UHGV virus genome: UHGV-0062059
Direction: 5' to 3' (one strand)
DNA from: a virus
Length of the DNA: 39,873 nt
The stretch's first letter is position 1. Each line of letters opens with the position of its first letter. Positions 3,001 to 6,000 of the stretch are shown in pieces. The position numbers are program-made.

Positions 3001-6000
3001 GTGTATCTGTAATTTTAAATAACTCTCCCTGGATAAAATCTTCAGAAGCATAAAAAAGAGGCTGACCCGGTATTCTCTCAAATAAAAAACGAGCATTTTT
3101 AAATCGACTGACATCTGGAAGAGTTGATACTTTAAAAGTAAGCCCTCGCCCATCTATCTTTTCACCACCTGTTGCAACAGAAAGTAATTCTGATAGAGCT
3201 GATGTGTCATCATGAACACCATCACCAATAGCCCCCCAACCTCTTACATCATAACTGTCTCTCCATCTTGCTATCTGAAGTTTTGGGTATTTATTCGCTC
3301 CATCTGGGTCTTCTAATTGCTGCCGTAACTGATCAGGATCATACTTCAGCACATTAGGAAAATAGAACTGCTGCGCACCATACGCATCATAAACAGCCAT
3401 AGAATGGCCTTGCACGGTAACGAATTTGGCAATCTGTCCGTTATATACCGGATATCCAGCAGCGTTAATGATTATTGGTTGCGAAACAGGAATGTGAGAA
3501 CCGTCTTCGTTCTCTACATAAACCTGAATCTGGTTTTCAGGATTTACCGGGTCAGTGTCAATTTTACCGATATAAATTTTGCCATTGGCTACGGCTTTAA
3601 AAGAACGCGCCATAGTGAAGAGTTGCGAAGGCATACTCACTACAACATTGGCTGTAATGTCTGTCATTTAATTTGCTCCAGATACAAGGAATCGCCGCAG
3701 CATTGCCACAGTGATGCATTATTAATCAAACAAAGAGACCACTGTGGTCTTATTGAGGATGCAACCAGCAGATAATAAGATGCCGATCCACTCACAAAAG
3801 CGAGGCATCAAGAATGGGAAGAGATGACCCGCAATTTAATCTGCGGCTACCTTACGAATTAAAGGAAAAACTAAAACAGCGAGCCAAATCCAATGGCCGC
3901 TCTCTTAATTCAGAATTAGTTCAGATAGTGACTGATGCTGTATCAAAGCCATCCAAAATTTCAGGCTATCGAGACGATGCGGAACGCATCGCTGATGAGC
4001 AGTCAGAGCTTGTTAAGAAGATGGTGTTTGATACGCTGAAGGATTTGTACAAAAAACCCACCTGAAGGTGGGTTAATTTTTGCATTTACCTGGGCCATAT
4101 TGACTACTTATAAAATGAGATCAATATTTAATCGCCCAATAACGGGTGTATGTTGAGGTATATCATGGCGAAAAAACCAGGTGAAAACACAGGAAAAAAC
4201 GGCGGAATATACCAAGAAGTTGGCCCCCGCGGCGGTAAGAAAGACAATTTTGCAACCGTCAAGGACAACGAAAGGCTTCCACCAACAACAAAGCCAGGTC
4301 ATGGCTGGGTATTGGATAAGCGAACTCCAGACAGCAAAAAGTAATAATCAAGCCGGGTCACTCCGGCTTTTTGATATGTCGCTCGCAGAACTCAACAAGC
4401 CTGCTCATTAAGTAGCAGTAAGTCTCGTTGGCTCTTCCTGGTTCAACATCAACACCTACCCTTGAGCAGATATCGAATGCCATGTGAGCGCACTCATGGG
4501 CAATAGTAGATAGTTTGCCATTGAACACGCCTATCACATGCAAAACACCATTCTCGCTACTCATTGTATGAGACGCTCCGTTGGCGTCCGAGTCATGCAC
4601 GTCAACGCCAAGTTTTTGATGCAGGCGTTGCCATTCTGGAAAGTCTCTACAAAACACAATTGTACCGCTCTCAAAGAGCGGAACGAGCATCTTTGGTACG
4701 TTTCCAATGTTAACTTTTTTCATGGTATCCTGCGCAAAACTAAGGAGGTTGGTGTGTCTGATTCTATGAGTTACGCTGTGCTAGTTGCCGCAACTCTATT
4801 TCTGGGGATAGGGTTGCAGATTGCGTGGTTCTTTTTTTCTAGTTTTATTAAACGTAAAAGAATTGAATCAAGGATATCTGAGATTTCTATTGCTATAGGG
4901 AAAAATGCTGAAAATCCAGAGAATGAGGCCTGCGCACTGAATTACCTTAAAGAAAAGTTTTCCCCTGAAAAATTTGAAAACAGAATTACTGATGCTCTTG
5001 GATTGGTAATATCAGTAATTCATATGCCACTAAGTTTGCTGATAACAGTGTGGTACTTCGCCATGATCGCCGGAAGAATATTTGGTTTCATGAATATAGA
5101 GCCTGTAGTTCTTTGGGTTCCAATGATACTGCAATTGTTGTTAAGCGTTGCTATCTTTATTTTTTCTGTTTTTATAAAAATTGTCTTCGGAAGATACCCC
5201 GGAGAAGCGAAGGGATTTAATAAAGAATTCATAAAAACTATAAAATAAATGCCGTCCTTGGCTTACAGTGCTACTGCCGGGTAGCTTCGTTAACTAAGAG
5301 CGGGCGCACGGCAGTAGCCGCCTGATTTAGCGCTCTTTCATAAGCTGGCGTTCCAGCTTTAGTGTTTGCCAGACGTAAGAGCGCATTCCTTGCTGCTTTG
5401 GATTCATACAAGCGCATCATTGCACCGAAACCAGCCTCAAGCCCCATTGATACGCCAAGAGTCGTAGTTGCGCCAATCGTCCTTATCCTGTTGGCTTGCG
5501 ATTGCCCCGTCTGAGTTACTACATTTGCGGTGTCTGATCTTGCTGCTTGCTGTAGAACTTCATGAAGAGCATCAAGTTCTTTCATGTGCTTTCCAGAAAA
5601 AATAGTGTTGTAAATTTCACCGCCTGACTGAGATTTCAGCTTATTAACTTCAGTGATGAACTTGGCTGGAGAGTCACCGGCCTTTTCCGCTATTTTGCTG
5701 ACGTAAGCTGCACGCATAGCATCTTTCCCTTTATCATCAAGTGCGCTCCAGATTCGTTTCACGTCAGATGGTTTTCTGCTTAATACAACGGTATTTATAA
5801 GTTCAGGACTGGCTTCACTGCTTGCCTTGTTGAGCTTGTTAGCAATGTTTTTATTAAGCACCTTATTATAAACGTTTGCATAATCGGAATTTGCTTTAAG
5901 GTATTTTGCTGCGTCTGAAGCACCGAGGTTTTTGGCAACTGCGTTACGAAGGTCTTTTGACATTGCATTCTCTACCATATTGGTAGCTGCTTTTGCCTGG

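Follow-up and report, generated by a model that had tools for sequence, protein, structure and literature searches.

The window analysed here is a stretch of 39,873 nucleotides from the virus genome UHGV-0062059, and the locus in question (4086-5270) lies between the ejection-protein gene 16 and the tailspike gene 9. An earlier note on this DNA had described three small genes interrupting the late/tail region at this point, and all three are present: orf59a and sieA on the plus strand, with hkcC between them on the minus strand (Table 1). The locus is 97.1% identical to phage P22 DNA over 1183 nt (P22 13316-14498), a level of identity that excludes chance, and it is embedded in a longer P22-like block (3967-5372, 95.7% identity) that begins midway through mnt and stops some 100 nt inside the 3' end of gene 16. 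The order mnt, orf59a, terminator, sieA promoter, sieA matches that of the P22 reference record BK000583, and in other P22-like records the minus-strand open reading frame (ORF) is annotated as homologous to hkcC of HK620. The segment 3814-5270 is the accessory region published as the 'ant moron', the name given by Villafane et al. (2008) to the gene 16-gene 9 region, for which they recorded 'ten types in sixteen genomes' (PMC2629481). In P22 its content includes sieA, hkcC and 59a, its rapid flux has been stressed, and transcription from PLate reads through it into gene 9 (PMC2629481). The tailspike joins a P22 head-binding domain to a K1 endosialidase and is about 99% identical to the tailspikes of CUS-3 and vB_EcoP-720R6, indicating that the window represents a P22-like, CUS-3-type prophage of Escherichia coli K1.

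Table 1. Genes and sequence elements in and around the accessory region (window coordinates)
Feature	Position	Strand	Description
Tailspike gene	722-3667	-	P22 head-binding domain fused to K1 endosialidase
Palindrome AGACCAC-A-GTGGTCT	3736-3750	.	Perfect; coincides in position with the P22 Mnt operator, inside the 'immI remnant'
mnt	3814-4065	+	Arc/Mnt-family repressor, 83 aa; Pfam Arc E 2.8e-22, Repressor_Mnt E 2.2e-18; 76% identical to P22 Mnt
Terminator-like hairpin, bidirectional	4055-4081 (hairpin 4055-4074)	.	'tMNT' in HK620; overlaps the mnt stop codon
Sigma-70 promoter-like site	4100-4128	+	TTGACT-17 nt-AATATT; upstream of orf59a
Inverted repeat CGCCC-N6-GGGTG	4133-4148	+	Just past the -10 hexamer of the orf59a promoter-like site
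orf59a (HkcD of HK620)	4165-4344	+	59 aa, YjzC-like, ATG 4165; phrog_3202 E 7e-31
Terminator hairpin after orf59a	4350-4373 (hairpin 4350-4369)	+	'tORF59A' in HK620, mnt terminator in the P22 record; T-run on the plus strand only
hkcC	4358-4723	-	Stand-alone HExxH...E protein, 121 aa; phrog_1365 E 1.7e-39; late-operon strand
Putative PsieA promoter	4693-4723	+	By homology to the BK000583 annotation; within the first hkcC codons
AAGGAGG ribosome-binding site and GTG start	4742-4756	+	Left junction of the cargo slot
sieA	4754-5248	+	Superinfection exclusion, type A, 164 aa, GTG start behind AAGGAGG; phrog_7745 E 7.1e-109, positions 1-164 of 164
Gene 16, ejection protein	5271-7112	-	Right border of the locus; its product is among the SieA targets; phrog_770 E 9e-278; P22 type, 75% identical (BLASTP against P22 gp16)
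Gene 20	7109-8485		gp20, P22 type, 75% identity

The membrane protein that the earlier note had placed at the P22 sieA position does lie there, and that wording understated the case: 152 of its 164 residues (92.7%) are identical to those of P22 SieA, a protein of equal length from which it differs by 12 substitutions, and on this comparison we are highly confident that it is SieA type A itself. The three transmembrane (TM) segments foreseen from the sequence are recovered as hydrophobic spans at about 5-32, 78-113 and 112-150 (Kyte-Doolittle, 19-residue windows), in keeping with the three TM helices reported for P22 SieA; with its 164 aa the protein also lacks the N-terminal extension that distinguishes types B and C (PMC10883804). 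The motif FxRYPxEAxxFNK, described as better conserved than any other feature across the three SieA types (PMC10883804), is intact at residues 145-157, where the sole change relative to P22, N153K, falls at an x position. A 98.8% identical E. coli protein bears the RefSeq name 'superinfection exclusion protein A', and PHROGs categorises the protein as 'superinfection exclusion SieA-like'. The gene runs opposite to the late operon, between two minus-strand genes, and the 74 bp preceding it (4680-4753) differ from P22 by a single nucleotide. Of 5426 complete E. coli genomes, 35 contain it in identical or nearly identical form, which argues that the allele is maintained; several unrelated strains, of pig, dog and human origin, have it at 100% identity.

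A longer ORF beginning at ATG 4538 (4538-5248, 236 aa) is called sieA in some records; UAB_Phi20, for instance, annotates a 236-aa extended 'sieA' that starts inside hkcC. We rejected it as a real gene, because 85 bp of upstream DNA suffices in P22 and because the alternative ORFs found at this position (see below) share GTG 4754 or join just before it. The fact that this shared GTG is followed by typical signal-peptide N-regions argues that it is the true sieA start, a point left open in published work.

The functional interpretation draws on studies of P22 for the membrane location of SieA, the injection block, the gp16/gp20 escape mutants and the activity in E. coli K1. A single copy of P22 sieA with 85 bp of upstream DNA reduces P22 plating by at least 1e7 (PMC10883804), and the protein was located exclusively in the inner membrane by fractionation (Leavitt et al. 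2024, PMC10883804). Its block of DNA injection is confined to P22-like phages, and escape needs mutations that alter the C-terminal portions of gp16 and gp20; both P22 and HS1 SieA have been shown to block P22-like phages, and P22 SieA placed in the E. coli K1 strain EV36 excluded CUS-3 to below 1e-8 (PMC10883804). In the 2024 survey the sequenced free phages with sieA were Salmonella phages only, and type A and B genes were noted in E. coli prophages (PMC10883804). By extension, the sieA of the window would be transcribed in the lysogen from the putative PsieA promoter, on the strand opposite to the late operon, and its 164-aa product would reside in the inner membrane and stop incoming P22-like virions from passing their DNA across it, most likely by interfering with the gp20/gp16 conduit. 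Given the published activity of P22 SieA and the near-identity of the upstream 74 bp, a K1 lysogen carrying this prophage would be expected to exclude CUS-3-type and other P22-like phages, a property of relevance to phage therapy directed at K1 strains. That this particular allele is active in exclusion is, in our assessment, probable, with somewhat less confidence than its identity.

The surroundings of sieA show that it occupies a site of recurrent gene replacement. We surveyed the best 80 of 216 IMG/VR contig matches in which hkcC is at least 99% identical, and found 12 unrelated ORFs in the position of sieA. Alignment of three of these cargo types across the left junction reveals identity through the GTG at 4754-4756 that is lost right after it; 11 types use this shared GTG, and the remaining one, of 161 aa, joins within the Shine-Dalgarno sequence. 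The conserved DNA hence provides a promoter, a ribosome-binding site and usually a start codon, and the ORF behind them is exchangeable. The 161-aa protein, with a lipoprotein-type signal (LAGC), is the most frequent (18 contigs), followed by SieA type A (13), a 129-aa protein with an N-terminal signal-like segment (12), a 75-aa protein with two hydrophobic stretches (8), HkcB (8), another 109-aa protein (6) and proteins of 106 aa (5), 62 aa (4), 68 aa (2), 149 aa (2), 99 aa (1) and 140 aa (1). The N-termini of 11 of the 12 appear hydrophobic or signal-like by eye, some of them also having been checked by hydropathy. None of the alternative cargo proteins matches a PADLOC model. Within 3600-5400 no direct or inverted repeats of at least 12 nt were found, which leaves no indication that att-like or transposon ends border the cargo. 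The position of sieA is an exchange socket, in which the expression signals are contributed by the hkcC-proximal DNA and the ORF is swapped among phages.

Comparison with individual prophages, which the earlier note had suggested as a way of finding variable content, gives the same picture. The K1 tailspike is common to CUS-3, vB_EcoP-720R6 and the window, and their gene sets differ: the CUS-3 region comprises ant, hkcB, a pair of mnt-like genes and two further genes of unknown function, and is devoid of orf59a, hkcC and sieA, and that of vB_EcoP-720R6 contains mnt and two ORFs with lipoprotein-like N-termini, LAGC and LSGC (locus L021, 914-1333 and 1468-1953). E. coli SCU-124 and YP3 retain the mnt-orf59a-hkcC segment of the window with other genes in the sieA slot, and orf59a-hkcC DNA is found in 132 of the 5426 complete E. 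coli genomes. The alternative ORFs of these loci (L021; L007, 2655-3044; IMG/VR loci L025-L104) nearly all start with a hydrophobic segment, be it a lipoprotein-type signal, an N-terminus resembling a signal peptide, or one or two hydrophobic stretches, and are candidates for further exclusion functions.

The gene farthest from gene 16, orf59a, had been flagged as encoding a conserved small protein of 59 aa, and this is borne out by 58 of 59 residues identical to P22 Orf59a (98.3%; omega 0.07) and by values of pN (nonsynonymous divergence) of 0.02-0.29 against pS (synonymous divergence) of 0.55-1.0 in more divergent homologues. Orf59a matches the Pfam family PF14168 (YjzC) with E 0.0013 and 19.4 bits, under the cut-off of 25, the alignment covering positions 8-54 of the 55-position profile. 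Its homologues fall into 110 clusters, some named 'YjzC family protein' in UniRef and some, among the most distant, with a precomputed PF14168 match; phmmer links Orf59a to proteins with such a precomputed hit at E 1e-6 to 1e-3, and in a joint alignment with PF14168-bearing proteins GPRGG and LPPT are invariant. With its score below threshold and homology established via intermediates, Orf59a is better termed YjzC-like than a member of the Pfam family. The AF2 model (pLDDT 87, three strands) predicts an all-beta protein, and a sequence profile search of the PDB returned nothing.

Upstream of orf59a lies a sigma-70 promoter-like site that recurs in five genera, namely Morganella, Proteus, Klebsiella (K. 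oxytoca, with TTGAGA), Rosenbergiella and Xenorhabdus: in all six examined orf59a loci that adjoin a close HkcC homologue, the hexamers stand at -63 to -69 from the ATG, separated by a 17-nt spacer of unrelated sequence. Because of this recurring site and the terminator after the gene, orf59a is probably a textbook promoter-gene-terminator moron, a second self-contained unit, convergent with hkcC, that would be expressed in the prophage; in P22-like phages, transcription from Pmnt may reach it as well. The inverted repeat at 4133-4148 may act as an operator or form a hairpin at the 5' end of the mRNA: it has 4 pairs, with 87.5% of cells paired in 6 sequences and 2 pairs changed on both sides across six genera, a weak signal equalled by 14 of 500 shuffles. 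In Salmonella phage 22 an out-of-frame ORF overlying orf59a (4181-4411, plus strand) is misannotated as a 'tubulin/FtsZ family GTPase domain protein'. Some other prophages with orf59a homologues carry defence-like genes nearby: in K. oxytoca a SNIPE/T5orf172 nuclease gene after the tape-measure gene (L003, 9771-11854), and in S. bongori adjacent GmrSD_N and HEPN genes (L015-L017, 5878-7727).

The HExxH protein reported earlier is HkcC, in which the motif reads HECAH at residues 76-80 and is invariant in 19 close homologues. HkcC differs from its P22 counterpart at one of 121 residues, all 6 nucleotide differences being at third codon positions (omega 0.05), and homologues of 57-63% identity give pN 0.22-0.36 against pS 0.76-0.94, with saturated synonymous sites; by these measures hkcC is a real gene. 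A profile search of 1.84 billion representatives recovered 514 relatives at E<=1e-3, of which nearly every one is a stand-alone protein 100-140 aa in length, and across 100 of them (23-43% identical) H76, E77, H80 and E100 are the only invariant columns. This pattern is the HExxH-plus-Glu signature of gluzincins, with E100 as candidate third zinc ligand, and HkcC is a predicted protease. The AlphaFold model (pLDDT 89.3) has strands, then the HExxH helix, then a second helix bearing E100. Searches with this model in BFVD gave 26 matches at E<=1e-3, with TM scores up to 0.82; many are uncharacterised phage proteins, and a few are named SprT-like, metalloprotease or IrrE. No Pfam family covers HkcC: SprT-like PF10263 does not match it and matches only one of the 100 relatives (E 1e-4), and the profile has a weak match to myroilysin (E 0.007). 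The fold prediction is confident and weakly zincin-like, and HkcC probably works like a minimal zincin, belonging to no curated family.

The divergent starts of hkcC and sieA at 4723 and 4754 are, as described earlier, about 30 bp apart, the 5' side of hkcC consisting of a conserved 30-nt spacer followed by the variable cargo. A promoter dedicated to hkcC would not fit into this spacer, a consensus scan of 3600-5400 found no minus-strand promoter-like site, and hkcC is co-oriented with genes 16 and 9 and, in other phage types, with tail or lysis genes. For these reasons hkcC is probably a late gene made by read-through of the late operon from gene 16 rather than a lysogen-expressed moron. Base composition sets one of the three genes apart. 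The locus as a whole is AT-rich, as had been observed: its GC content is 41.5%, that of the window 47.2%. Only sieA (35.6%) and the spacer 4066-4165 (35%) account for this difference, and orf59a (47.5%) and hkcC (46.2%) are at the window average, so that the compositional mark of a moron in the Juhala/Hendrix definition is present in sieA only. As to dedicated expression signals, orf59a has a promoter-like site and a terminator hairpin, and sieA a putative promoter and no detectable terminator. The view that this accessory, moron-like region harbours a prophage exclusion function is upheld by the presence of sieA in a published 'ant moron' (PMC2629481). It does not extend to hkcC and orf59a, which have no known exclusion role, and a search of PADLOC-DB 2.0 yielded no defence-system family at E<=0.01 for SieA, HkcC or Orf59a.

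The explanation that accounts best for these observations, and which we consider very likely, is a P22-like E. coli K1 prophage whose 'ant moron' carries a working sieA with about 85 bp of upstream DNA as its exclusion element, alongside a separate orf59a unit and a late hkcC. Gene identities, conservation, junctions and motifs are shown by the sequence analysis; the behaviour of this allele, the timing of orf59a and hkcC expression and the protease activity of HkcC are inferred. Several points weigh against this explanation. The SieA of the window has 12 substitutions, and the omega of sieA relative to P22 (0.36) is above that of its neighbours; PsieA is described as 'putative' in the literature and was not flagged by a consensus scan; no terminator was found after sieA by folding; and transcription of sieA in P22 lysogens is reported to be weak (PMC10883804). 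As regards the other two genes, they can be found apart: in 10 of the 80 contigs orf59a is replaced by another small membrane ORF, and S. bongori prophages have orf59a with no detected HkcC homologue.

The most substantial alternative is that hkcC and orf59a form a two-component system providing the key function beside or instead of sieA, with the late-expressed HkcC cleaving or neutralising a small YjzC-like effector, expressed from the prophage, at the lytic switch, or with the two acting as a toxin/antitoxin-like or defence/anti-defence pair. Their association is striking in its breadth. Outside the IMG/VR set, orf59a lies convergent with and directly downstream of every intact close HkcC homologue examined in detail, and in 70 of the 80 viral contigs it stands at fixed spacing, with the stop codons 12-13 nt apart. 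The pair is present in P22, HK620, E. coli prophages, four Morganella loci, Proteus, Xenorhabdus (L022) and two siphovirus-type prophages, those of Klebsiella oxytoca and Rosenbergiella, where it is lodged between the tail tube/chaperone genes and the tape-measure gene; the Morganella and Proteus prophages are P22-like. In Xenorhabdus, a 16%-identical HExxH...E protein is convergent with an orf59a homologue behind a lysis cassette. Both genes are more constrained than sieA, HkcC preserves an invariant HExxH...E site, and orf59a has its own conserved promoter-like site. Against this stand the want of a known phenotype for either gene or of a PADLOC match for their products, the sufficiency of sieA alone for P22 exclusion, and the possibility that the co-occurrence reflects co-mobility of adjoining DNA. 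The two genes are also separable: besides the cases given above, an Arsenophonus hkcC copy is frameshifted and lacks orf59a, and a few E. coli megablast matches span hkcC without orf59a. We consider this alternative unlikely.

An obligate hkcC/orf59a pair was rejected on account of the 10 contigs without orf59a; the linkage is strong, not obligate. A scan of genome contigs recovered 3 loci only. Functional coupling of the two genes is a hypothesis to which we give rather little credence, and we view with greater reserve still the more specific conjecture of an unrecognised mobile two-gene module, in which a small YjzC-like beta protein made in the lysogen from its own promoter would be removed or counteracted by a minimal HExxH...E protease produced by the late operon alone. 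If such a module were real, convergent transcription would enforce an either/or state, and the two genes would mark or control the switch from lysogenic to lytic growth or constitute a defence/anti-defence pair; a first route would also open to the function of the YjzC family and of a family of over 500 small phage zincins. No functional study of hkcC, orf59a, YjzC or SprT-like anti-defence was found in the literature.

To return to sieA as the exclusion element, the gene might instead be a decaying or altered allele that no longer excludes, the locus being a passive remnant like the truncated immI. Such decay would fit the 12 amino-acid changes and the omega value, the loss of arc and ant nearby and the rarity of sieA in E. 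coli. The ORF is nevertheless of full length and has no frameshift, its substitutions are all conservative or in loops, the diagnostic motif is intact, and conservation extends to the promoter, the ribosome-binding site and the region of the start codon; the recurrence of exactly the same allele in unrelated strains from pig, dog and human is likewise hard to reconcile with decay. Furthermore, type B SieA retains the same exclusion phenotype at 24% identity (PMC10883804), which implies that the function tolerates far more divergence than the SieA of the window shows. On balance, an inactive sieA is very unlikely. The remaining proposal, that hkcC is a spurious ORF over DNA conserved only as the sieA promoter region, could appeal to its absence from the annotation of the P22 records BK000583 and NC_002371 and to the overlap of PsieA with its 5' end, and is for practical purposes refuted by the third-position changes, the low pN relative to pS, the 514 relatives with four invariant catalytic-type residues, the confident fold prediction and the presence of hkcC where no sieA-type gene follows.

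On the tailspike side, the immunity I genes are reduced to mnt, arc and ant being absent from the window. The perfect palindrome at 3736-3750 corresponds to the P22 site GGTCCAC-C-GTGGACC, annotated as the mnt operator in BK000583, and its half-site changes are symmetric; in parallel, the N-terminal strand of Mnt (residues 1-20, 3814-3873) departs from that of P22 Mnt, including His6 to Gln. Mnt and the palindrome together look like a natural variant in repressor/operator specificity. In the absence of arc and ant, this operator-like palindrome stands directly upstream of the tailspike gene. The bidirectional terminator described earlier is confirmed as a terminator-like structure: the hairpin at 4055-4074 has A-run and T-run flanks, so that a T-run follows it on each strand, and folding energies of -14.8 kcal/mol (plus) and -16.9 kcal/mol (minus) with z of -3.0 and -4.2. 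A second hairpin, on which the earlier note was silent, follows orf59a and overlaps the 3' end of hkcC. An Rfam search brought up only terminator-like sroH fragments far under threshold, and an NCBIfam search nothing meaningful.

The ejection-protein genes are ordered 16, then 20 and 7. The gp16 and gp20 of the window are of P22 type, unlike the CUS-3-type gp16, to which the similarity is 42% identity over 439 aligned residues in the N-terminal two-thirds only. At the published SieA-escape positions the wild-type residue is kept at gp16 G532 and at gp20 T338, T341 and G350, and Thr takes the place of gp16 P546, for which the escape mutant is P546S. The CUS-3 match to the tailspike part of the window is split into two segments, which extend over some 850 nt more in CUS-3 than in the window; the CUS-3 record annotates neuO and int there.

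The locus, the sieA mechanism and the variability of the region are already published, and the novelty is limited to the description of the cargo socket and the characterisation of HkcC and Orf59a; the main outcome is confirmation that a prophage exclusion locus could be recognised from raw sequence. Beyond this, the socket, with at least 12 unrelated ORFs, supplies a list of candidate exclusion genes, and the strongly conserved hkcC/orf59a pair and the large, uncurated family of stand-alone HExxH...E phage proteins are leads in their own right.

Set against known systems, the region resembles the 'ant moron' of Villafane et al. in its variable genes without a role in morphogenesis, its independently expressed genes and its possession of mnt, sieA, hkcC and 59a as in P22; it differs in the absence of arc, sar and ant, leaving mnt alone of immunity I (PMC2629481). 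The hkcB-hkcC-'HkcD' segment of HK620 (Clark et al. 2001; AF335538) has hkcC at 99% and orf59a (HkcD) at 98% identity, both terminators and the same ribosome-binding site and GTG, and is distinguished by the loss of mnt and by hkcB in the sieA slot, encoding a 109-aa protein with an N-terminal hydrophobic segment and then a long charged stretch. In its predicted model HkcC shares with the minimal zincins (SprT-like/Spartan proteins, ImmA/IrrE M78 and astacin-like cores) an HExxH helix after a small sheet and a conserved Glu 20 residues past the second His, on the next helix. Orf59a, phage-borne and gammaproteobacterial, falls below the gathering threshold of the YjzC family PF14168, a family with no known function. 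The closest counterpart of the exclusion element itself is P22 SieA type A (Susskind 1974; Hofer 1995; Leavitt et al. 2024), which agrees with it in position, motif and the upstream region of promoter and ribosome-binding site, and likewise has hkcC and orf59a as neighbours; the window copy differs by its 12 substitutions and by residing in a CUS-3-like prophage of E. coli K1 rather than in a Salmonella phage. More broadly, T4 Imm, HK97 gp15 and the Ltp-type lipoproteins are small envelope proteins by which a resident phage blocks DNA entry of its relatives, and SieA is comparable to them by functional analogy only, with no sequence relationship claimed.

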